NCBI GenBank assembly: GCA_965602015.1
Contig: OZ271918.1
Coordinates: forward strand, 1 to 64,000
DNA length: 64,000 nt
Direction: 5' to 3'
DNA from: Salinispira sp.
Lineage (GTDB): Bacteria > Spirochaetota > Spirochaetia > DSM-27196 > Salinispiraceae
The notes under the pieces are model-generated. The model made no database searches. It saw nothing but the letters and a program-made list of their open reading frames with translations, and had not been told where the DNA came from. The first letter of the stretch is position 1; every line of letters begins with the position of its first letter. Below are positions 1-12,631 of the stretch, piece by piece. The position numbers and the translations under genes were made by a program.

Positions 1-167
1 CCGGTAACCGGCACCCGAACACTGCTAACTGACTCCGCCGGACGGATGATGGCTGCTGCGTTGAGTGAATCATCAATCGGGAAAAAGAGGCCGATTCCCA
101 GGAACAGCGTAAAGATTACTGAACTCCAGGTAGATACCTTCGTCCAGCGCTTCGATCTTATTTGCAT
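1..167 (-). CDS. HlyD-like membrane fusion/secretion adaptor, N-terminal part (runs off window edge)
   Basis: Manual translation from ATG at 167: MQIRSKRWTKVSTWSSVIFTLFLGIGLFFPIDDSLNAAAIIRPAESVSSVRVPVTG. One TM helix followed by the typical 'A.IxP....V..PVTG' start of MFPs; directly downstream of a PCAT. Not in the ORF track. Confidence 0.65.
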   Translation of the reverse strand, partial: MQIRSKRWTKVSTWSSVIFTLFLGIGLFFPIDDSLNAAAIIRPAESVSSVRVPVT

Positions 168-224
168 GTGATACCTTTGCAGTCGGAATCGGGACTTACA
201 TCTCCAAAACTCTGAGCTTTGGGT

Positions 225-2390
225 TTAGACGTACTGGGCCTGCCAGAGCTCCCGGTAAGCTCCGGTTCCGTCGGACATCAGTTCGTCGTGGCTGCCCGAC
301 TCTATGATTCGGCCGTTTTTCATGAGGTGGATAGAGTCGCAGCCCACAAGGGTCTGCAGGCGGTGGGCTGCCACTACGCAGGTGACCCCCTGCTCCTTGA
401 GCGAATCGAGGGTTTTGTTGAAGGCTTTCTGGGAAGCGTTGTCCAAGGCGCTGGTTGCCTCGTCGAGGAGCAGTACCGAGGGCTTTTGGATCAGTGTTCG
501 AGCAAGGGCGATTCTTTGGCGCTCGCCGCCGGAAAGATCGCGGCCGCCTTCCTGCAAGATGGTGTCGAAGCGCCGGGGCAGGCCTGAGATAACCGACAGC
601 GCCTGGGCTTTAACGCAGGCTTCCAGCACGTCTCCGATGCCGACGGATTCTTCACCCATAATCAGGTTTTCATAGACCGACATGCTCAACAGCTGTACAT
701 CCTGGGACACGTACCCGATGCAGCTGCGCAGCCATGATAAATCCAGGTCCCTGATGTTGATGCCGTCGATGCTGATTGAACCGCTGTCCGCCTCGTAGAG
801 ACGAAAGAGCAGTTTCATCATGGTCGATTTTCCGCATCCCGACGCACCGGCTATCCCCACCCGGCTTCCTGCGGGTATTTTTACCTCAAGATTTTCCAGC
901 GCCGGCCGCCCTGCTTCATATGAGAATTCGACTCCCGAGAATTCAATTTCACCTTTTATGCTTGTCGGGTGAATTTTCTCAGGTTGGGTATCATTCTCCG
1001 GCTCTTCGTCAGGCAGCTCGAGTATTTCCCCGACTCTCCGGGCAGCGATATCGGCGCTTTGAATGGCGGGCTGCATGGTGAGGATCCTGTTCAGGGGTGC
1101 GGAGAATGTGCCGCTCAGCATGGAGAAACTGATGAGCTGCCCGAAGCTCAGCTCTCCGGCCATTATCATCCGGCTCCCCGCCCAGAACAGAATGATTCGC
1201 TGAATGAGTTCGAAGGCTGAAAGGAGCTCCTGCTGAACGGCGGCGAGCCTTGTGAGACTGAAATGGGTGTTTGTCAGGTCGCCGAACTGCTTCCGGCTGA
1301 TTTCCATGGATGTAGCCTCATATCGGCTGCCCTTGATAAGTCCCATGGACGACAGGGCCTCTATCACCCTGCTGTTGCACATACCGTAGAGCGTCATGTA
1401 ATCCCGGTTTTGCTTTTCGAAGGTCTTGTGCATCCCCAGTACCAGCAGCGCGGACAGGGGAATTATCAGCATCATAATCAGGGCGAGTTTGGGCGCCTGG
1501 AAAAACAGAAAGCTTCCGACGCCGATAACCATCATGCTGTCCACCGATAATGCCATAACGCTGCCCGAAAGCACACTGCGTATCCGTCTGATGTCGTCGA
1601 ACCGGGTGTGGATTTCACCGGTTTTCCGTGAGTCGAAAAAGCTCATCGGCAGCTTCATCATTTTCGCCATATAGCGGTTCATCAACTCGAGGTCGATGTT
1701 GCAGCCGATTGCCGAGAGAATGTACTGTCTGCTGAATGATAAAATCCCCCTGAAACCAACCAGCGAAAGGGCGACCAGTGAGATAACCGAGAGACTCAGT
1801 CCGAGCTGCCCCGGGATTACCGAATCAACGAGAAACCGAAAGTAGATGAACTGCAGGATACTGATGACAGAGAGAATCCCCGAAGCCATCACGACCATCG
1901 CGAATGATCCGGTGAAGGGACGTAGCAGTTTGATAAAGCCCGCAAGGCCCGGTGTTGCCGACGTCTCGGTCAGAACCCCGCTTCCCGGCTCAAGAATCAT
2001 TGCCGCGCCCTGATACAGCAACTCGAACTGCCTAGCGGAAAGCCGGCGTTTCCCCTCGCCGGGGTCGGCCAGGTAAAACCTTCGAGACCCCGTGCGATAT
2101 AACACCGCAAAGTGACCACCGTCCCCCAGGCGGCTCTCAATATGAACAATGCAGGGCAGAAAAACAGCTGCCCGAAACTGGCCGGATTCTACCCGTACAG
2201 CCCTGACGGAAAAACCCAGTTCGCCGGCGGCCTTGGCCATCCCGGCAAAACTGCTCCCCCGCAGCCCGGTGCCCGCCAGCCGGCGAATCTGTTCCATGGA
2301 ATGCAGCACCCCGTGAAACCGGCAAATCATTGCCAGACATGCCGCCCCGCAATCCTGCTCATCCCTCTGACGAACCAATCGGAACATCAC
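225..2390 (-). CDS. Peptidase-containing ABC transporter (PCAT; C39 peptidase + TMD + NBD), bacteriocin-exporter type
   Basis: N-terminal QRDEQDCGAAC (catalytic Cys), GHFAVL...LADP (His/Asp), TM region, Walker A GASGCGKS, LSGGERQR signature, LLLDEATS Walker B. Confidence 0.95.
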   Translation of the reverse strand: MMFRLVRQRDEQDCGAACLAMICRFHGVLHSMEQIRRLAGTGLRGSSFAGMAKAAGELGFSVRAVRVESGQFRAAVFLPCIVHIESRLGDGGHFAVLYRTGSRRFYLADPGEGKRRLSARQFELLYQGAAMILEPGSGVLTETSATPGLAGFIKLLRPFTGSFAMVVMASGILSVISILQFIYFRFLVDSVIPGQLGLSLSVISLVALSLVGFRGILSFSRQYILSAIGCNIDLELMNRYMAKMMKLPMSFFDSRKTGEIHTRFDDIRRIRSVLSGSVMALSVDSMMVIGVGSFLFFQAPKLALIMMLIIPLSALLVLGMHKTFEKQNRDYMTLYGMCNSRVIEALSSMGLIKGSRYEATSMEISRKQFGDLTNTHFSLTRLAAVQQELLSAFELIQRIILFWAGSRMIMAGELSFGQLISFSMLSGTFSAPLNRILTMQPAIQSADIAARRVGEILELPDEEPENDTQPEKIHPTSIKGEIEFSGVEFSYEAGRPALENLEVKIPAGSRVGIAGASGCGKSTMMKLLFRLYEADSGSISIDGINIRDLDLSWLRSCIGYVSQDVQLLSMSVYENLIMGEESVGIGDVLEACVKAQALSVISGLPRRFDTILQEGGRDLSGGERQRIALARTLIQKPSVLLLDEATSALDNASQKAFNKTLDSLKEQGVTCVVAAHRLQTLVGCDSIHLMKNGRIIESGSHDELMSDGTGAYRELWQAQYV

Positions 2391-3706
2391 GGAGTTTCCT
2401 CGTCAGATTGGTTCTCAGCCACTGTCGCAGACCTGTCCGAGTCCTGGTTTTCCGGATTTACCGGTTCGTTAATAGGGACGAGGGGAGTGCGGGCTATACG
2501 TAGGCCTCGCGCGCCGGTGAGGTACGGGGTTCTTTTGAAGGAGCTTATGGACGGTGACCCACCGAAAAAGGAAGATGTACAGTACATCCGAAAACTATCG
2601 TAGTTCATTGCCCTACGACGATTCTCCCAGTTAGTTTCCTCCTCGTGCATGAGCCATTCATTATTGTTACCGGAAAGATCAAATATACCCAAGTGATTCG
2701 GTCGTTTTGTTCCTACCTCATGGGTTTGCCAGGCTATACCGCTGGTGTTGGAATTTTCTATGTACCAGGCAAATTCACCATTTAGTTCGGGGTCATCCTC
2801 GGGAATGTACATGGCCCCGCTGGCGGCAAGATGAAATGCATAGTATTGCCCTTCCATCCTTTGATTCCACTCGTATTTTGGAGTAGGAATTCGATTAGGA
2901 TCGAGCCAACAGCCAGCGACGTCATACTCCGACGGAGTCGGAAGCCTAAATCCGTCATGCAGGTAATGAAGCTTTTCATCTACATATTGGTAGAGGTCCG
3001 CTTCCACCGGAATAAATATATCTGTAGGCACATCGTTTGTCCTGCTTCTACCAGCATTTGCCAGGCGCGCGTCCCGTATTACGCTTCCGTCGCGTCTGCG
3101 ATATACCGGGCTGAGTTCACTGCCGCTGTGGGCATTCACCCATTCGGTCAGCGCGTTGGTCCAGACTACTGCGCTAAACCAGTCTATGTGGGTCACCGGG
3201 TGACGTTCGTTCAGGAGGTTTGGAGGGATTTCCGTACTATGGCTTTCATCAGACATTATACCCATGCCCATTTGCCCGGGAGATCTAAAATGGTAACGGC
3301 TTTCCAGCCGGTCTTCCGCAGTCGCCCAGCTGTGTATTGTTTCCCATAGTACATAGGTTACCTCTGTTTCCCCCATCCAGCAGGAGGCGACGGGAATGAC
3401 AGCTTCGTGGAATTTTAATTTTGTGTGGCCATTGACGGTATGACGAAGCCGCAGAGATAGCTCCCCAACCTGGAACTGCTGAAGCGTTCCTGGCGCGCTT
3501 TCAACCCGGATGTATTGACGGTCGTGAAAAGGGGGAATGGTTGGGACATCTCCCTCAGTAAACCATGCTGTGTCTAGATTACTAACGGTTGGCAAGCCGG
3601 CGGCGATTTCATTTTCCGCATGTCGGGCCTTAGTTGACTCGAAATGACAGCCGACAGGTAAGGTCCACAAAACAATCAAAAAACAGCTAATCATGGTTCT
3701 TCTCAT
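2387..3706 (-). CDS. FGE-sulfatase (formylglycine-generating enzyme fold) domain lipoprotein
   Basis: Signal peptide ending PVGC; motifs ETEVT, HPVTHIDW, FRLPTPSEY, HEVGTKRPNHLGIFDLSGNNNEW, C-terminal GLRIAR; stop overlaps PCAT start. Confidence 0.85.
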   Translation of the reverse strand: MRRTMISCFLIVLWTLPVGCHFESTKARHAENEIAAGLPTVSNLDTAWFTEGDVPTIPPFHDRQYIRVESAPGTLQQFQVGELSLRLRHTVNGHTKLKFHEAVIPVASCWMGETEVTYVLWETIHSWATAEDRLESRYHFRSPGQMGMGIMSDESHSTEIPPNLLNERHPVTHIDWFSAVVWTNALTEWVNAHSGSELSPVYRRRDGSVIRDARLANAGRSRTNDVPTDIFIPVEADLYQYVDEKLHYLHDGFRLPTPSEYDVAGCWLDPNRIPTPKYEWNQRMEGQYYAFHLAASGAMYIPEDDPELNGEFAWYIENSNTSGIAWQTHEVGTKRPNHLGIFDLSGNNNEWLMHEEETNWENRRRAMNYDSFRMYCTSSFFGGSPSISSFKRTPYLTGARGLRIARTPLVPINEPVNPENQDSDRSATVAENQSDEETP

Positions 3707-3716
3707 GCTCTCATCC

Positions 3717-4553
3717 CTATTCGATTACCCGAAGGCTGACAATCTGATAGTCAGAGCGGTCTTTGCCGGAATGGGGATCCATCATGGTATCCCAGTCCCA
3801 GCCGCTCACGGACACGAAGTGGGTGGCACCGTTGTGCGTTTGAAGCTTCACAATTACGCCGCTTACATCGCCGTAGTCATTTGCCTCGCGAAATTGATTC
3901 AAAACGCTCTGGCCATTTGAATAGCTGAGGTCGCTGTAATTCTCCAAATTGTCGCCGGTGAAGAAAGGAAGATCATCGGAGCTATCTATTGATAGATAGT
4001 CATCTAAAGACAGGCTCAGTTTTTCGCCGATCACCTCCATCAATTTCTGAGGATTGTTTACGTACCCGTTTTTCTCAATTATGGGATTTCCATTATCGGA
4101 TCTCATCCCCGCCTCCACAATCTCCAGCGCTTCGTCGAAGCTGATGTCATAGCCTGCGGCGATGTACTGGTTGATGAGCGAGGCGACGAAGCAGAAGCCG
4201 TCGCCCAGTTCGGCATCCAGATCTCTGCCGAGGCTGTCGGGATCAAGGGGGTCGGGGTCCGGATCGGTTTCGTCGTCTTTCGGGGGTTTGGGCTTCGGGG
4301 GTTTGCGGTAGCTGGTGTCGTCGTAATATGAGCTTGGGCCTTTGTACGGGGTTGAGCCGCCTCCGCCGCTGAGCCCCGGGTCGCCTTTGTACCAGCTGCT
4401 GAAGGCGCTGATGTCCGGGTCGTCATCATCATCCGGGCCGTTATCGGGTGTGCTCGGTTTTTTGTAGCTGGTTGGCGACGAGTAATGGCCGCCGCGGATT
4501 TCCGCCATTTCTTCCGGGGTGAGCTCCGGCAGGGTGAGGGTGGTCTGCTTCAT
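3717..4553 (-). CDS. Double-glycine-leader secreted precursor (278 aa) with Pro/Asp/Ser-rich linker and putative papain-like C-terminal domain
   Basis: N-terminus MKQTTLTLPELTPEEMAEIRGG matches the EL..EE...I.GG leader consensus; same operon as the PCAT; C121 (GFCFVASL), H245 (THFV), D259 (MDP). Confidence 0.8.
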   Translation of the reverse strand: MKQTTLTLPELTPEEMAEIRGGHYSSPTSYKKPSTPDNGPDDDDDPDISAFSSWYKGDPGLSGGGGSTPYKGPSSYYDDTSYRKPPKPKPPKDDETDPDPDPLDPDSLGRDLDAELGDGFCFVASLINQYIAAGYDISFDEALEIVEAGMRSDNGNPIIEKNGYVNNPQKLMEVIGEKLSLSLDDYLSIDSSDDLPFFTGDNLENYSDLSYSNGQSVLNQFREANDYGDVSGVIVKLQTHNGATHFVSVSGWDWDTMMDPHSGKDRSDYQIVSLRVIE

Positions 4554-5749
4554 ACGCTGATCTCCTGTTTTATGGTATTCTTGTGCTCGCAGCTGCAGCT
4601 CTTACAGCGTTTTCTGGGCAGGTACTCCCGGTACACATCGATATGTGCCTGGGCGCACCTGCGCCAGGTGAATTGCCTGGCGTCGCTGATTCCCTGTTCC
4701 ACCAGGGGAGCGCAGCGTTTCCAGTCGCCGACTGCCCGGCGCAGTACTTCCGCAATGCGTTCCCTGTGGGATTCTATTTCCAGAGCGTTGGTTCCGGGCC
4801 TTAGGTATTCATCCATGCCCAAGCCCGTCGGAGCCAGGAGCAGGCAGCCGGCGCCCATGGCCTCCAGTCCTACGAGCCCGAAGGGTTCGTAGCGGCTTGG
4901 CATGACCACCGCATCGCTCTCCGCATATGCCTTGATTCGCTGGTTCCGTCTGACGAACCCCATAAACCTGACTGCGGGGTAGCGCCCGGCCATGTCAGGC
5001 GGAGCTTCGCTGTACAGTCGGAACTCTATGCCGGCAAACGACTCTTCTTCGGCCAGCGTCCGGGCGGCTTCCAGGTACTCGATTACGCCTTTGTGCCGGG
5101 GCTCAAAACGCCCGAAAAAGCTGATTACCCGGGGAACTGCCCGGGGTTTTGCCTGGGGCTTGGGAACCAGTTCTCCCCCGCCCAGGGGCAGCACCCGCGG
5201 TTTGCAGCCGGGACTGATGCTTGCGGCGGCCTTCTCGGCCATGTAGCGGGAGTACACCAGGCTCACCGGCGAGTTTCTCAGGGCATGCCTGTCAATTTTA
5301 TATTCCTGAAACCACACGTCATCCAGTTGGGGAAAGCCGACCAGGTCGGAGTAGGCGAAATGCAGGGAGAACAGCAGGTTCGGCAAGGCTCTGAAGGGAT
5401 AGTATGCCTGGCGGTCGTTACAGTGAATGACGTGAGGATCAAACGCCTTCAAGAGGGGAATCGACCGGGCCAGGATTTGGTACCCGGTGCGAAAAATCAG
5501 GCTCTCGGTGGCCGAGGCCCCGATGTCCGGTCCGGGTGACAGGCAGTAATCGACCTGATCCGAGGGAGTCGGAGCATCCCAGCGGTACTGGAGAAGCAGT
5601 ACCCGGGCGTCGGCTCCCAGCCTGCGGAGCTGTCGGGCCATCTGACCGATGAACTCCCCGGCGCCGCCAAGCCGCCGGCCGGGATCTTCATTGGTGACCA
5701 ACAGCACCCGCAATTCTTCGGTTTTTGATGTGCATCGGCATTTTTCCAT
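4550..5749 (-). CDS. Glycosyltransferase family 4 (GT-B)
   Basis: GGAG N-terminal motif, DPHVIHCND, FFGRFEPRHKG, PSRYEPFGLVGLEAM; ATGA overlap with the precursor gene. Confidence 0.92.
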   Translation of the reverse strand: MEKCRCTSKTEELRVLLVTNEDPGRRLGGAGEFIGQMARQLRRLGADARVLLLQYRWDAPTPSDQVDYCLSPGPDIGASATESLIFRTGYQILARSIPLLKAFDPHVIHCNDRQAYYPFRALPNLLFSLHFAYSDLVGFPQLDDVWFQEYKIDRHALRNSPVSLVYSRYMAEKAAASISPGCKPRVLPLGGGELVPKPQAKPRAVPRVISFFGRFEPRHKGVIEYLEAARTLAEEESFAGIEFRLYSEAPPDMAGRYPAVRFMGFVRRNQRIKAYAESDAVVMPSRYEPFGLVGLEAMGAGCLLLAPTGLGMDEYLRPGTNALEIESHRERIAEVLRRAVGDWKRCAPLVEQGISDARQFTWRRCAQAHIDVYREYLPRKRCKSCSCEHKNTIKQEISV

Positions 5750-5862
5750 CTCACAACTACTACCCGCAGATCAGTTCAGCTGCTTCGATTTTTTATGGAA
5801 ATTCGAAGTGGTTCGAGACTTTTTTCAGTGAGATAGTCACAGCACTATGTGAGGAGTTGCCG

Positions 5863-8055
5863 ATGAGTAGAGTCCGGAGGAGATTGTCCGGGAAATTGAT
5901 GGCGGTCGGGGCGTTTGTGATGTGTGTGGCGGTCTGCGCCGGGGCTTCCTGCAGAATGAAGACCCTCGAGCCCGAGTTGCCCCCTGAAGTGGTCAGGCCG
6001 GCGGTCCTGGGGGAGATAGGCCTCACGGTCCGCATTCCCGAAGATCTGGGTCGCTACCGACCGGGAGCCGCCGCCAGATTCATCGATCCCCGCTGCGCCT
6101 CCCTGGAAATTGTGGTTTCCGGAGCCGACATGGAGGACAAAAGCCTGTCTGCCCAGATCGGGCCGGAGGACGCCGGCGGTTCGGTGGTTCTGGAAATGAC
6201 GGGAATACCCGCTGGAGATGCCCGCTTCATTCAGGTCACCGCCAGGGATGAGGACAGCGGGATACTCGGAAGTGGCGCCGCACAGATCGCGGTGCATCCC
6301 TCGGTGGTAACCCGGGCGGTAATATGTCTCCTCCCGGACGTATGCGTACCCCTTGAGACCGGAGCTCCCCGCATGGAGAGCATCGGAGCGAAAGTACTGA
6401 TGTATTTCCGCACACCGGCGGGCGGGGCGGAAACCGGCGGGTTGTGGTCCTTTTCCGTTGACTCGGATATCCGGCCGGATGTGTATCTTATTCATGCTGA
6501 CGGCACAATGACCGATGATTTTCGCCTGGAGGAGCGAAGCGCCGGGACCGATGCGGTGCTGTCGGCGGAAACCGGGGATGAACTGTACTGCGCTCTGGGC
6601 AACCCCGGAGCTTCGGCCATGACCGTTGAAATTACCTGGCATGAGTATCCCGGCCGGCTGTTTGATCCGTATTACATCGGCGCGGAGGTGGGAGCCGGGG
6701 GTTTTACCGATATCAACTCCGGCGCCCAGGCTCTTTGGCCCGGACGGGATGGTTCGACCAATCACATCACTTCGACGATTTCCCTGGATTTTTCCTTCCC
6801 CTTCGGAGGCGCATGGTATGACGAGCTTGTTGTCAGCTCCAACGGGTACATCGCCTTCACAAGCGAAAATATCTATAGCTCCGTGGACGCCGATGATTTT
6901 TCCGCCCGGGATTATCCGGTGAACCTTATCGCGCTGTTTATGGGAAGCTTCGTGGCAGATTTTGAGCGGGGTTTTCAGGGGTATTGTGCGTTCGACGGGA
7001 GCGGGGACGGCCGACGCTGCACCATACAGTTCGACAGTGTCAGACTGCGTAGCCAGCCTGATATCTCCTTATCGGGTCAGGTGGTTGTGTATGCCTCCGG
7101 GGAGATTGAACTTCGCTACCGGACTCCGGGTCAGGCCCTGCCGGCCGGGGAAGAGCTGGCGGCGGGATTGAAGAATAATGCGGGCACCGATTTTCGGGGG
7201 CCCGGGCTGCTGACGTCCGCCCTGCCTGCTGAAGACCTGCGCTTCGCCCTCACGGACAACTTGCCGCCAACGGCTGTCATGAACATGCCGCCGGCCGCAT
7301 ATGCAGGAACCGGGGTGGCGTTTTCCGCCGAGGAGAGCAGCGACCCCGACGGCAACATTGCTTCATGGTTTTGGGACTTCGGCGACGGCGCCAGCTCTGA
7401 GGGCATTACGGCGAACCATAGCTACGCCGATTCAGGCAATTATACAGTCAGCCTCACCTGCACAGACAGCAAGGGGGCGGCGTCCCGAAGCAAGAAAACC
7501 ATCCGCATCGGCGAAGACAGCGGGATAGACACGATTATTATCAGCGAGCTGTTGTTCAGTTCTTTTGATGATGCCGTTGAACTGCACAACCCGACCCTGT
7601 CGCCGGTGAGCATCGGAGGATGGACCGTCGGCATTTACCGAAGCGAGAGCAGCCACAGTATTATCAGCCTGCCGGGCGGCACGGTTTTGGCGCCTTTGAG
7701 CTGCCTTGTGGTGACCGAGGCTGATTTTGATGACGAACTGCTGCTTGGGCATGCGCCTGTTCTTGCCGGCGACAAAAACTGGACTCTCTACGGCAATTAC
7801 CGCGCCAGGATCTATCTGGAGGACGGCGGGTCTGCGCCGGTTGACACCCTGCTTCTCAATGACAGCTTCATTCTGCCGGCGGGCGGGCGCTGGTACGGCA
7901 ACCCCCTGACTCCCGGCGCCGAGGCGCTGGGGGTAAGCCGCAACTATCCCCTAACTGATAATCACGATGGAGCGGACTGGCGGATAGACTCTCTGAGCCC
8001 CGGGGAACTGTACCCCGGCGAGTCTGAGGGAGGGCTGCTCATAGATATCCGATGA
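5863..8055 (+). CDS. Large surface lipoprotein with PKD domain and C-terminal lamin-tail-like domain
   Basis: RBS GAGGAG before ATG 5863; signal ending GASC; PKD motif SSDPDGNIASWFWDFGDG...HSY...GNYTVSLT; LTD-like IIISELL...VELHNP; nidogen-like FSFPFGG...VSSNGYIAF segment. Confidence 0.75.
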   Translation: MSRVRRRLSGKLMAVGAFVMCVAVCAGASCRMKTLEPELPPEVVRPAVLGEIGLTVRIPEDLGRYRPGAAARFIDPRCASLEIVVSGADMEDKSLSAQIGPEDAGGSVVLEMTGIPAGDARFIQVTARDEDSGILGSGAAQIAVHPSVVTRAVICLLPDVCVPLETGAPRMESIGAKVLMYFRTPAGGAETGGLWSFSVDSDIRPDVYLIHADGTMTDDFRLEERSAGTDAVLSAETGDELYCALGNPGASAMTVEITWHEYPGRLFDPYYIGAEVGAGGFTDINSGAQALWPGRDGSTNHITSTISLDFSFPFGGAWYDELVVSSNGYIAFTSENIYSSVDADDFSARDYPVNLIALFMGSFVADFERGFQGYCAFDGSGDGRRCTIQFDSVRLRSQPDISLSGQVVVYASGEIELRYRTPGQALPAGEELAAGLKNNAGTDFRGPGLLTSALPAEDLRFALTDNLPPTAVMNMPPAAYAGTGVAFSAEESSDPDGNIASWFWDFGDGASSEGITANHSYADSGNYTVSLTCTDSKGAASRSKKTIRIGEDSGIDTIIISELLFSSFDDAVELHNPTLSPVSIGGWTVGIYRSESSHSIISLPGGTVLAPLSCLVVTEADFDDELLLGHAPVLAGDKNWTLYGNYRARIYLEDGGSAPVDTLLLNDSFILPAGGRWYGNPLTPGAEALGVSRNYPLTDNHDGADWRIDSLSPGELYPGESEGGLLIDIR

Positions 8056-8093
8056 GTAATGATGGTAAATGACCGCCGGGTCTGATATAGTCT

Positions 8094-9245
8094 TTGTATC
8101 GAACTTTCATTGATTTTTGGACCGGTATGTTACTGATTGCGGCGGCCATCGCCTTTACAACTAACCTGATTCTCACCAGATTTATCATTCGGCTCAGCCA
8201 TAAAAAGCAGTGGTTTGACCATTTCGACGACAGGAAAATCCACACCGAAGAAACTCCCCGGTTGGGGGGCGTCGGGTTTTTCCTGAGTTTTATTATTACG
8301 GTGCTTGTTATCATTGTGCTTCAGCTGGTTTTTCCCGGGCAGCTATTGCTGCGGGGCATTCAGCTAAGGCGGAATCTCCTGCTGTTTCTCGGGCTCACGC
8401 TGATACACGGCCTCGGCTTGTATGATGATTTTCGCCCCATAAGGGCCATATACAAGCTGGTCGGCCAAATCGCCGCCGGCATAATGATGGCCCTTGGCGG
8501 CGCTCTTATGGACGGAATCTACCTTCCGGTGATTTCCGTGGTTATTCCCCTTGGCCCCTTCAGCGGGGCGGTTACGGTGTTCTGGATTATTTCCATTTCG
8601 AATGCGGTGAATCTGATCGACGGGCTGGACGGTTTGGCCGGGGGCACGTCGCTTATTGCGGCGTTGGCCATCGGCGCGGTCCACATCATCCTCGGCAACT
8701 TTATCGGGGCCTTGTACAGCTTCATTCTTGGCGGAGCGGTTTTGGGCTTTTTGTTTTACAACCGACCCCGGGCGAAGATTTTTATGGGCGACTCGGGCAG
8801 CCTGTTCCTGGGATTTATTCTCGGCGCACTGGTGTTTATCGGAGGCGACGGAGCGGCGGATGAGGCGGTGAACGGAGTGGATCAGTTTCTTGCGGGCTTT
8901 GTGCTGACCATTACCCTGCTCATCGTTCCCATTATCGATATGATATCCGCCATTCTGCGCAGGCTGAGGGAAGGAAAGCCTATACATCACCCCGACAAGG
9001 AACATCTGCATCACAAGCTTCTGGGCTTTGGCTTTTCCACAGCTCAAATTCTGGCCATTGTTCACTCGGTGAATCTGGCCATGGCCGTTGCGGTTATCGC
9101 CTGGGCAATAAACAACGCGTCGGGAGGCGCTCAGGTGGCCGGCGACCTCATACTCATCGCGGCCTGGACCCTGGCTGCAGCCCTCTCAATCTGGCTTCAC
9201 TACGCGAACCGGCGGCGCAAGAGCCGGGCTTCAGCATCGAACTAA
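8094..9245 (+). CDS. MraY/WecA/TagO-family undecaprenyl-phosphate sugar-1-phosphate transferase
   Basis: RKIH..PRLGG, GLYDDF, NAVNLIDGLDGLA, IFMGDSGS, DKEHLHHKL; start may be ATG 8127. Confidence 0.92.
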   Translation: MYRTFIDFWTGMLLIAAAIAFTTNLILTRFIIRLSHKKQWFDHFDDRKIHTEETPRLGGVGFFLSFIITVLVIIVLQLVFPGQLLLRGIQLRRNLLLFLGLTLIHGLGLYDDFRPIRAIYKLVGQIAAGIMMALGGALMDGIYLPVISVVIPLGPFSGAVTVFWIISISNAVNLIDGLDGLAGGTSLIAALAIGAVHIILGNFIGALYSFILGGAVLGFLFYNRPRAKIFMGDSGSLFLGFILGALVFIGGDGAADEAVNGVDQFLAGFVLTITLLIVPIIDMISAILRRLREGKPIHHPDKEHLHHKLLGFGFSTAQILAIVHSVNLAMAVAVIAWAINNASGGAQVAGDLILIAAWTLAAALSIWLHYANRRRKSRASASN

Positions 9246-9353
9246 GTGAGTTTTATTACTCTTGCCCCCCGGTACATCCTGATTGCCCGTGACCGTCTTT
9301 TGCCCATTAGCAGATTTTTGAGGCGCTGTTCTTGCTTGTGAGGAGGAGCCTGA

Positions 9354-10970
9354 ATGAGTAAAAAAATTGCCGCAGCTATAGCTTTTGCCCTCGTTGTTTT
9401 TTGTCTACACGCTCAACACCCTCAGGAACATGTCCCATTTGACTCTCCAAAGCTCAGCCTTGGCAGGCTTCAGCTCGTTGCGATGGGAAGGGTTGGGCTT
9501 CTCAATGCTATGCCTTTAACCTATGACCAATTGATCAGCCAAATAGATGACACTCCTGGATTGAACCTCTGGATTGAGGAAAGGCCGGGAGAGTCAAACG
9601 ATCTTCACTACAATAATGCCAGTGGATTACAGGCTCGAATTAAACCAGTGCTGGGCCTGGAAACCTATGCCCGAGGCAATCCTGATTTTGGATCTCTATA
9701 CCATGGCTACATTGAGCGCCTTCCTGTTATAAATTTCAGTACAGCCTTGATTGCCGGAAGCTATGTCTATCTTTACGCCGATTACGAGCTAAGAGAAGAG
9801 TATTTCGCCGTGAATGGAGATGGTTGGCCAAATGTAAATCTTCCCTCTGATTTTGGGTACTTTGATTTTCAGCTTCCGATACACGCCTATGGATCAGTCG
9901 GGGGTGATTTTTGGAACGTCTCGCTGGGAAGGGAGCGCAAGGAATGGGTGAGCGGAAACTCTGGCTCCCTCGTGTTGTCCGAGCGTGCTCATTTCTACGA
10001 ATATTTGCGGTGGCAGCTGTACTCTTCGGATATTATGTATACGAATCTCCTTATCAATATGGAGCCCTTGCTGCTCGATGGAGAATCAGATGGACCGGAA
10101 AGCAAGAAGACATTTCTTGCTCATAGATTCGATTTTTTATTTTTTGATGACCGTGTTCATTTAACCGTTACCGAAGGTACACTCCTTGGCGGAATTAATG
10201 TCGAGCTTAAACATCTCAATCCGTTGATGATTTTTCACAGCTTCACCGATTGGACCAATGCCAGCAGTCTGTTTTCACTTGCGCTTAATGTCACGCCGTT
10301 CCCCATGATCGAGATATACTCGGAATTTGTCATGAATCAGATTCAGCTCAGTTATGAAACCCAAGTCTATGAAGATGACGCCATGCCCAATGCAATGGGT
10401 TACCTGGGAGGTTTCAGGGTTGTTGTTCCTTTCAGTGACAATTTATCGAATCTCTTTTTTGGAGGAGTTGAGTTTGCCCATACTGATCCATGGCTATATG
10501 TCCGGGAATCCCCGTTTATCAGCTACCATTGGCGTCGCAGAGTTTTTTCCAATGTTGAAGGAAATGGAATAATTCGTATTGTGACAGAGCCTATGGGATA
10601 TCAGTATGGTCCTGATGCAAGGGTAATTGATGTTCATCTTGGTTATCGTTCAGGGCTGTCATTTGCCGCGAGTCTCGGTTTTCGATATATTGCCAATGGT
10701 GAGAAGACTGTCTCTTCTCCGTTTGCCACTGGCGATGAAGCGGTGAAACTGCGGACACCGACTGGCGTTGCAGAAAAAACATACCTCACTTTTATAGAAA
10801 CTGAATATGAGCCGCTTGAGTACTTGCGCCTAACTGGAACCATCGCCTGGTACAATGTGCAGAATTATTTGCACCAGACAGATGAAACGCAATCGGATGT
10901 GCAGATGAGTGTTGGCGTCGAGATAGATCCGGTTGAATTAATTAAAAATACATTAGGAAAAACTGAATGA
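9354..10970 (+). CDS. Wzi-like capsule assembly / outer-membrane beta-barrel protein
   Basis: Signal peptide; SLGRE..W.SG.SGSLVLS, AHRFD, LNPL, MGYQYGPD motifs resembling the Wzi family. Confidence 0.6.
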   Translation: MSKKIAAAIAFALVVFCLHAQHPQEHVPFDSPKLSLGRLQLVAMGRVGLLNAMPLTYDQLISQIDDTPGLNLWIEERPGESNDLHYNNASGLQARIKPVLGLETYARGNPDFGSLYHGYIERLPVINFSTALIAGSYVYLYADYELREEYFAVNGDGWPNVNLPSDFGYFDFQLPIHAYGSVGGDFWNVSLGRERKEWVSGNSGSLVLSERAHFYEYLRWQLYSSDIMYTNLLINMEPLLLDGESDGPESKKTFLAHRFDFLFFDDRVHLTVTEGTLLGGINVELKHLNPLMIFHSFTDWTNASSLFSLALNVTPFPMIEIYSEFVMNQIQLSYETQVYEDDAMPNAMGYLGGFRVVVPFSDNLSNLFFGGVEFAHTDPWLYVRESPFISYHWRRRVFSNVEGNGIIRIVTEPMGYQYGPDARVIDVHLGYRSGLSFAASLGFRYIANGEKTVSSPFATGDEAVKLRTPTGVAEKTYLTFIETEYEPLEYLRLTGTIAWYNVQNYLHQTDETQSDVQMSVGVEIDPVELIKNTLGKTE

Positions 10971-12631
10971 GAAAACGTCTCTTTGTATCCTTCGTTATCT
11001 TGCTTTTTCTGCTCATGACCAGATTAACCGCTCAAAGTCTGGGCTACGTTAATCTAAACCATGGAGCATATGAGTTAATTGATGAGGCCTATGCCTTGGA
11101 TGCCCTCCCGTTTGTCTCGATGGCCCGGCCATATACAAAGCGGCAAACTATTGATTTGCTATCCAAAATGGAGACAGCAGCATTGACTGATCTTCAAACC
11201 GAACTCCGGCAATATTACATAGATCAATTATCCGCTGACTCTAGTGGCTTTATAGAAGTGGAACAGGACAATAGTAGGCTCGCCATTTCAAGTCCCGTTA
11301 CCTTAGGCGTAGCCGCAAATACCTCCGGATTCAAAAACACTATTCCAAGCCTGTCTCAATCTCTTAAATTCTCATTGGAGTTCGGGAGTAATTTGTATAT
11401 CGGCGTAGATCAGATGCAAATATTTCAGCTCTGGGCCTGGGATGATCTGCCTTATGCACATCTCCAGGAGCCGGTGAAATTCGATAATGTTTTTCATGGC
11501 TGGAATTTACAAGATGGTTCACAGTTCTCAAACACGAATTCCTTTCATAATCCCGGCGATCAGCATGTGTTCTATGCATCCAATCAAGAGAGCCAGGTAA
11601 CCATAGGAATTCTGGATAGTATTTTGAACCTCGGGCGAAGCAATCTTAATTGGGGGCCTGGAAAACGGGCAGCAGTACATCTGTCCGGCTCGAGCAAGCC
11701 GTACGAAAATATTTCTCTGATATTGCCAATTGGCAATGTGGGTTCATTTTCCTGGGTGACCGGTTTCCTCCAGGAAGACATGCCCCTGGGTTCGGATTTT
11801 GACGGTAAGCGGATGATGAATGCCCATCGACTAGAATTCCAGCCCTTGAGCTTTATGACAGTATCAATTTACGAAACCGTGTTGTACAGCAATCGTTTTG
11901 AACTCGGCTACCTGAATCCCATCGGTTTATATTTCCTTAATGAAGTGCGTCTGGGGGATTACGATAACAAACTCGGTGGAATTGATCTGCATTTCAGGTT
12001 TTCACCCATACATCTTTATGGATCATTCTTTGTCGATGATTGGACGTTCAGCAGGATATTCAGCCTCAACTACTTCAATAATCAGTTTGCATTCCTCGGC
12101 GGTATTGAATGGGTGAATGTTATACCGGATCTCAATGCGGCTTTCGAACTGACGTATATGAGTCACTGGATATATACTCACCGTACTGATATTTCTGCAG
12201 GAGTAGAACATAATTTCAATAATTACACACATTTCGACAGTCATCTTGGGCACACGATGGATCAGAATTCCATCGCGGGAGAAATCTTTCTGGACTATGA
12301 CCTCAGCAGGAATTTCGAACTCAACTTCTCAACGTTTTTGATGTTCGACGGCAGGGGAACCATTGACGACCCGCCGGACTGGACCTTTGAACGTGAATTG
12401 AGGGGCTTCGAAAGCGTCCGTGATATTTGGTATTCATTTCTCGATTGGGATTTGGATCAGTTCAGTATTGAGCGGATGCTTCAGGTTGAATTGTCTGGAC
12501 AATACCGTTTTCCCGAAACCAACTTGGGATTGGAAGCAAGAATTATCCTTGAATCAAGAGTAAATAAAGATAATGTGGTTGATGCAAATGAAGTCACCGC
12601 ATATAGCGAAATGCTGTTTACCATCCGCTAA
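10967..12631 (+). CDS. Second Wzi-like outer-membrane protein
   Basis: Signal peptide; RPYT, LGRSNLNWGPG, AHRLE, YETVLY, YLNP, DNKLGG, LGH motifs; ATGA overlap with the previous gene. Confidence 0.7.
   Translation: MRKRLFVSFVILLFLLMTRLTAQSLGYVNLNHGAYELIDEAYALDALPFVSMARPYTKRQTIDLLSKMETAALTDLQTELRQYYIDQLSADSSGFIEVEQDNSRLAISSPVTLGVAANTSGFKNTIPSLSQSLKFSLEFGSNLYIGVDQMQIFQLWAWDDLPYAHLQEPVKFDNVFHGWNLQDGSQFSNTNSFHNPGDQHVFYASNQESQVTIGILDSILNLGRSNLNWGPGKRAAVHLSGSSKPYENISLILPIGNVGSFSWVTGFLQEDMPLGSDFDGKRMMNAHRLEFQPLSFMTVSIYETVLYSNRFELGYLNPIGLYFLNEVRLGDYDNKLGGIDLHFRFSPIHLYGSFFVDDWTFSRIFSLNYFNNQFAFLGGIEWVNVIPDLNAAFELTYMSHWIYTHRTDISAGVEHNFNNYTHFDSHLGHTMDQNSIAGEIFLDYDLSRNFELNFSTFLMFDGRGTIDDPPDWTFERELRGFESVRDIWYSFLDWDLDQFSIERMLQVELSGQYRFPETNLGLEARIILESRVNKDNVVDANEVTAYSEMLFTIR

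Follow-up and report, generated by a model that had tools for sequence, protein, structure and literature searches.

A predicted PCAT-exported cysteine hydrolase-like cargo from Salinispira sp. as candidate cassette of a spirochaete polymorphic toxin-immunity system

We analysed a stretch of 64,000 nt (the window) that forms the start of a 3.87-Mb single circular record of Salinispira sp. On balance, we favour reading its first genes as one cassette of a PCAT-exported spirochaete polymorphic toxin-immunity system, in which the N-terminus of the toxin would be modified as in RiPPs and an FGE-fold lipoprotein is the candidate immunity protein. An earlier note on this DNA proposed a new export system for a large, possibly glycosylated double-glycine protein and missed the main point, which is the polymorphic cargo-plus-partner architecture. 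For the family to which the cassette belongs, a toxin-immunity logic is likely, and we hold it with good confidence.

The five genes lie on the minus strand throughout (Table 1). They are as co-oriented and tightly coupled as the earlier note described, with overlaps at 4550-4553 (GT4/cargo) and 2387-2390 (FGE/PCAT) and a gap of 10 nt between cargo and FGE (3707-3716). The GT4 probably starts at a TTG at 5713, where its homologues begin, which corrects the start at 5749. The closest named relatives are Spirochaetota. Promoter and terminator counts were at chance level, and flank searches in five relatives defined no insertion site. The cassette sits on the edge of a surface-polysaccharide region. 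Beyond the TolC-like gene are found a GH123 lipoprotein, a 203-aa protein and a GT2 (G000:C1:3867144-3863946), and the other flank (window 5725-12631) carries a PKD/LTD protein, a WecA/MraY-like gene and two Wzi-like genes.

Table 1. Features of the cassette. Coordinates refer to the window, or to the circular record (C1) where so marked.
Feature	Coordinates	Strand or place	Basis or remark
GT4 glycosyltransferase, candidate cargo-modifying enzyme	4550..5749	-	Pfam GT4 families over cut-off
Whole cargo gene	4553-3717	-	278 aa = 22-aa leader + 256 aa
Leader of double-glycine type (residues 1-22), cleavage predicted behind G22	4488..4553	-	PCAT consensus fit
Disordered Ser/Thr/Tyr/Pro/Asp-rich segment, candidate glycosylation site and linker	4254..4487	-	pLDDT; glycosylation inferred
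Papain/C39-like cysteine hydrolase domain, candidate toxin domain	3717..4253	-	Invariant residues and fold match
FGE/CLec-fold lipoprotein, 439 aa, candidate immunity protein	2387..3706	-	PF03781 over cut-off
PCAT: C39 peptidase, ABC membrane and ABC ATPase domains	225..2390	-	Pfam over cut-off; NCBIfam
HlyD, 5' end	1..167	-	Rest at record end, C1:3869486-3868587
TolC-like gene	C1:3868722-3867184	3' of HlyD, across the record's origin	OEP match

The exporter is a complete PCAT-HlyD-TolC set. The PCAT carries C39, membrane and ATPase domains in one chain and keeps the Cys/His/Asp residues of C39 that were noted earlier, as C14, H93 and D109; on TIGR01193 it reaches 480.6 bits, under the cut-off of 523.85. 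HlyD is split by the record break, where about 4-5 codons are missing, and a contig from a public sequencing run reaches 5,693 nt past position 1. The remainder of HlyD and a TolC, which the earlier note suggested looking for to the left of the window, were both found at the end of the circular record, with HlyD_3 barely over its cut-off (22.3 vs 22.2) and the OEP match of the TolC-like gene at 22.3 vs 22. Pumps of this type usually carry tiny bacteriocins; it is very probable that the cargo is exported by this PCAT. The same genome holds a second PCAT-HlyD-TolC locus (G000:C1:3611280-3606539), whose PCAT is frameshifted and lies among insertion sequences; no double-glycine cargo was seen at this second locus.

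The gene after the GT4 opens with the textbook double-glycine leader that the earlier note pointed out. It carries L(-12), E(-8), M(-7) and G(-2)G(-1), corresponding to L11, E15, M16 and G21-G22, and fits the PCAT leader consensus L(-12)xxxE(-8)L(-7)xxxxGG (PMC6959990). Genome-wide, the window cargo is the sole match to the leader pattern and to a leader HMM whose training included the window leader. Against the PDB, the cargo profile gave only two matches, both to PCAT1 substrate leaders and both weak (E 0.12 and 0.17). Residues 1-100 are predicted to be disordered (pLDDT <50) and residues 101-278 to be folded. The front segment begins with His-Tyr-Ser-Ser and is rich in Ser, Thr, Tyr, Pro and Asp; in homologous front segments, Ser and Thr together make up 25-58%.

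The folded part of the cargo, which had been called enzyme-like, is a predicted cysteine hydrolase, because a Cys-His-Asp set (C121, H245, D259) is invariant across five aligned cargo sequences, the fold matches are papain/C39-like, and the domain has relatives among Treponema cargo domains (HH probability 92.6, E 4.6e-7). The best VIA-align match of the domain model is the PCAT1 C39 domain (Z 8.5, rmsd 3.4, 121 residues), and the matches listed are papain-like throughout. Pfam, NCBIfam and PHROGs assigned no family to the domain, and Foldseek against the PDB and viral models returned nothing at E<=0.001. In Atlas features the cargo lies at 0.93-0.94 to DUF261 clusters; it gave no Pfam match to the DUF261 / Tox-PL-C39 family, and its predicted fold is C39-like. 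Word-based homologue searches found nothing beyond the cargo itself, and a full HMMER search of 1.84 billion representatives yielded four relatives. Three of these have a double-glycine leader, as does P0011, the full-length cluster member of the fourth. Self-processing by the papain domain is unlikely, since no domain lies downstream of it.

In the related loci, the leader and a Tyr/Ser/Gly/Thr-rich front are constant and the C-terminus is swapped. C-termini are papain-like in L012-L015, L020, L029 and L035, and M23 peptidases over the Pfam cut-off in L039 and L185. A further Cys-His family matches a PDB CHAP domain (E 2.5e-4) as well as CHAP and NlpC/P60 clusters, and resembles the T6SS amidase Tse1/Tae1 (Foldseek probability 1.0, TM 0.57, E 1.1e-3). 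The window holds a single cassette; tandem arrays occur in L180, with eight leaders in a row between GT4 and PCAT, and in L184 and L022, with three each. In L022 (29-3863), the three cargos are without an assigned fold, and the two genes between them are M23-like (one over, one just under the cut-off), which is the reverse of the usual arrangement.

Large cargos are each followed by an exported protein, and 20 of 21 next genes have a signal-peptide-like start (by eye). These next genes are homologous only where the cargo C-termini are homologous. Among cross-locus pairs of the 21 cassettes, cargo and next gene were both homologous in 9, the cargo only in 8, the next gene only in 0 and neither in 174, a count that leaves out one duplicate and one frameshifted L180 cassette, L088, those lying at the end of a contig or locus (L013, L035 and one in L022) and short partnerless cargos. 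None of 10,000 shuffles reached 9. For a second set of 13 cassettes, drawn from PCAT loci that lack the GT4, the counts in the same order were 5, 5, 0 and 330, with several matches at only 15-17 bits against a threshold of 15 bits. Recurring cargo-partner pairs are seen in different families (LRR, WG-repeat and one of 162 aa), and orphan partner genes are found in L014 and L184. Polymorphic double-glycine arrays are also present in L251, L269, L270 and L271, where no modifying enzyme was seen; their C-termini include DUF4329 and unassigned domains, and one cargo has a LysM.

Arrays of swapped wall hydrolases, each with its type-specific exported partner, are a hallmark of conflict systems, which argues for reading the family as one. 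We consider it unlikely that the cargo is instead a glycoprotein enzyme, secreted or at the surface, that serves a non-toxic role such as processing, nutrient release or signalling, and its partner a receptor or anchor. Ser/Thr-rich linkers are typical glycosylated stalks, as such a role would have it, and short enzyme-free Gly/Ser cargos are common: in 17 of the 32 cargo-bearing loci of the GT4 clade described below, only cores of <150 aa are found, mostly Gly/Ser-rich and without an enzyme domain. The toxin reading is also weakened because T. denticola supernatant, which contains related proteins, failed to inhibit seven oral strains; the authors of that study propose peptide hormones (PMC11879956). 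These points are set against the swapped hydrolase arrays. Cargos without a C-terminal domain occur in L003-L009 and others. In gut Treponema, L003-L009, L016, L018, L019, L023 and L040 combine the GT4, 45-103-aa Gly/Ser-rich cores and PCAT-HlyD-TolC and are partnerless, and these are candidates for glycosylated microcin-like peptides or decayed cassettes; in L002 the peptide is lost.

The partner slot of the window is filled by the FGE lipoprotein. Catalytic FGE has two active-site cysteines. The window protein has a lipobox Cys20 (by eye) and cysteines at 8, 20, 109, 266 and 376, none in conserved columns of an alignment of its homologues. The closest homologues, spirochaete TvpA-like proteins, are about 30% identical, and the T. 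denticola variable protein TvpA is matched weakly (E 2.8e-5). The earlier note took this lipoprotein as a partner and made conservation of both GT4 and FGE beside homologous precursors its test. This held for the GT4 clade and failed for the FGE, which is absent between cargo and PCAT in all related loci examined. None of the FGE homologues inspected lies beside double-glycine cargos, and a pattern search gave no genomic locus for the FGE protein. We therefore rejected the FGE as a conserved enzyme partner, as it is absent from related loci and its homologues lie away from such cargos.

Cargo and PCAT are separated by the FGE gene alone, which lies 10 nt from the former, overlaps the latter and occupies the position of the variable partner; in T6SS, an immunity role of FGE-fold proteins is proven (bioRxiv 10.1101/2021.05.21.445229). 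Because of this position and this precedent, we lean, modestly, towards the lipoprotein as the candidate immunity protein of the window cargo. This role is weakened because the related Treponema cargos have other partners, being followed by ~240-aa proteins and not by an FGE, and because the G004 homologue is without one: P0011, the nearest cargo homologue, is followed by an 87-aa ORF, and G004 gave no GT4-clade match and no FGE match. It is improbable, however, that export and toxin-partner logic hold and the FGE is not the immunity protein of this cargo but a partner left orphaned, or a TvpA-like binding protein that was inserted. Orphan partners do exist, and the FGE was not seen in any related cassette, but its tight placement, the immunity precedent and the presence of only one Cys in its C-terminal region speak against this.

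The GT4 belongs to a spirochaete clade present in 8 of the 401 genomes sampled from the phylum, with only three candidates scored per genome, and in 4 of 99 sampled genomes of the order. PCAT is found in 7 of the 8 clade genomes vs 38 of the 393 others. At E<=1e-40 there are 73 GT4 homologues, and a metagenome scan added three further clade loci among 80. Among 46 clade loci, a PCAT is present in 35, a double-glycine cargo in 32, either in 39 and, within the sequence covered, neither in 7; the cargo count is partly circular, as the leader profile was built largely from clade loci, and the PCAT count is not. The 46 loci comprise 26 lineages at 70% identity, so that genome kinship makes the counts overstate independence; by lineage, PCAT or cargo is present in 20 of 26 (hand count). 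The 121 other GT4 loci, mostly non-spirochaete, had no PCAT and one leader match. The GT4 thus stands as part of the system, as the earlier note had it, and belongs to a dedicated clade that accompanies double-glycine cargos and PCAT-HlyD-TolC. The window enzyme is without the methyltransferase-like C-terminal extension of most homologues; this extension (PF08241), seen in L004:10004-11707 and most clade GT4s, has a degenerate first motif. In L036 and L178, the clade GT4 lies beside small bacteriocin-like double-glycine peptides, in the former with two GT4s and a CAAX-protease-like gene (by eye), in the latter with a BAAT-family hydrolase lipoprotein.

Action of the GT4 on the front of the cargo is supported chiefly by the covariation of modifying enzyme and front. 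Among 43 clade cargos (many from kin, eight from one locus), 38 have Tyr directly behind Gly-Gly. In 40 PCAT regions that lack the clade, a hand count found this in 0 of 34 cargos, one of which shows Tyr behind a second, later GG. In L255 and L256, a radical-SAM/SPASM enzyme occupies the GT4 position, and here Cys is the first residue of the cargo fronts, which contain Cys-Gly-Gly repeats. Their C-termini and partners are of the types found in GT4 loci (CHAP + WG, CHAP + LRR, NlpC/P60, M23), making these loci a candidate thioether-modified branch of the GT4-linked system. The two radical-SAM/SPASM genes (L255:5247-6926 in G362; L256:5283-6950 in G299) are PapB-like, below cut-off. From these sequence patterns, action of the GT4 on the cargo appears fairly likely. 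That the GT4 merely belongs to the surrounding surface-polysaccharide region is very improbable: the flanks do carry rml-type, GT2, GH123, WecA/MraY-like and Wzi-like genes and the cargo occurs in G004 with no GT4 of this clade. Against this, clade GT4s adjoin a cargo or a PCAT even where the surrounding chromosome is unrelated, and they often overlap the start of the cargo gene; the Tyr-first rule and the radical-SAM swap tie the GT4 slot to the cargo front.

In the toxin-immunity model, the cytoplasmic GT4 would glycosylate the Tyr/Ser/Thr-rich segment behind the leader. Going by known PCAT chemistry, the PCAT would then cut after Gly-Gly and export the 256-aa protein via HlyD and TolC; secretion has been demonstrated for the T. 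denticola relatives only (PMC11879956). Outside, the C-terminal cysteine hydrolase would attack the envelope of competitors, most likely peptidoglycan, as suggested by the CHAP, NlpC/P60 and M23 domains in the same slot. In the periplasm of the producer, the FGE lipoprotein may bind and block the hydrolase, judging from its position and the precedent. The glycosylated front end would probably serve target uptake or stability. Two further points go against this model: the window cargo starts with His-Tyr and not with Tyr, and the fold match of its domain is middling. More tentatively, the system might be a hybrid of RiPP biosynthesis and polymorphic toxins. Here, an exchangeable maturase (GT4 or radical SAM) would modify a short motif after the leader, and the modified front would act as an entry tag that takes interchangeable PCAT-exported wall-cutting enzymes into the periplasm of rivals, each enzyme with its own periplasmic immunity protein.

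If correct, the toxin-immunity model would add PCAT/type I export to the routes of polymorphic toxins, would mean that RiPP-type enzymes modify folded protein toxins, and would supply a GT4 with Tyr or Ser of a protein as possible glycosylation sites. It would offer a possible function for the spirochaete 'bacteriocin-type signal' proteins, which are secreted without a known role, and put forward LRR, WG-repeat and FGE proteins as candidate immunity families. The existence of natural PCATs with cargo of 200-600 aa is also relevant to the length limit of engineered microcin exporters; the MccV exporter is described as coping poorly with cargo at 116 aa, which speaks against the model.

Glycocins combine a short Cys-containing core with a GT2 (SunS-type) enzyme, whereas the window pairs a GT4 with a 256-aa core that contains one Cys. 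On TIGR04157, used for the GG-Bacteroidales type, the window GT4 reaches 26.3 bits vs a cut-off of 400. Glycocins and cacaoidin share with the window a glycosyltransferase beside a leader-bearing precursor, and cacaoidin has an O-glycosylated Tyr and a GT4 in its cluster (PMC8068269); glycosylated RiPPs, however, have short peptide cores. Class II microcins and bacteroidetocins likewise have a double-glycine leader, a PCAT-type T1SS and an adjacent immunity gene, and the short Gly/Ser cargos of the clade resemble them. Their size is given as <150 aa, with membrane immunity proteins of <=216 aa (PMC12219008, PMC10231218); here, the 278-aa precursor exceeds the limit of ~150 aa, and a folded enzyme is paired with a 439-aa lipoprotein.

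T6SS effectors offer two likenesses, the Cys-His amidase fold of Tse1/Tae1 in related cargos, and Tsi3, in which a non-enzymatic FGE domain acts as immunity protein (bioRxiv 10.1101/2021.05.21.445229). In contrast to injection by T6SS, delivery here is predicted to occur through PCAT-HlyD-TolC, and the affinity of the window FGE protein is with spirochaete TvpA-like proteins.

Large spirochaete double-glycine cargo is already known. In T. denticola (TDE_0416/0422/0424 with TepA1-B1), double-glycine proteins of 167-614 aa are encoded beside a PCAT, in tandem with lipoprotein genes, and occur in the supernatant (PMC11879956). The likeness to the window lies in the large double-glycine proteins, the PCAT and the lipoprotein neighbours. 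In contrast, the available text of that paper is silent on glycosyltransferases, enzyme domains, polymorphism and cargo immunity, and the paralogues are near-identical. Double-glycine proteins of L265 (G291) resemble TDE_0416/0422/0424 and share a conserved Trp-Cys-Asn near the N-terminus, which may mark a cysteine hydrolase domain. The claim of an unrecognised combination is thus narrowed: a large double-glycine cargo beside a spirochaete PCAT was already published, and a literature search covering few subscription papers found no description of a GT4-linked, polymorphic, partner-paired system.

A parallel in organisation is provided by polymorphic toxins, which have a constant N-terminal trafficking part, a variable C-terminal toxin, an adjacent immunity gene and tandem cassettes, and for which a Tox-PL-C39 toxin domain has been described (Zhang et al. 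2012, PMC3482391). In the accessible part of that work, the routes are T2SS, T5SS, T6SS, T7SS, PVC, TcdB/TcaC, PrsW and MuF, without PCAT/type I export, and no modifying enzyme was seen, in contrast to the GT4 or radical SAM here. The present family shows the same architecture, with a constant N-terminus and variable C-termini across the related loci and, the window FGE aside, a type-specific adjacent partner.
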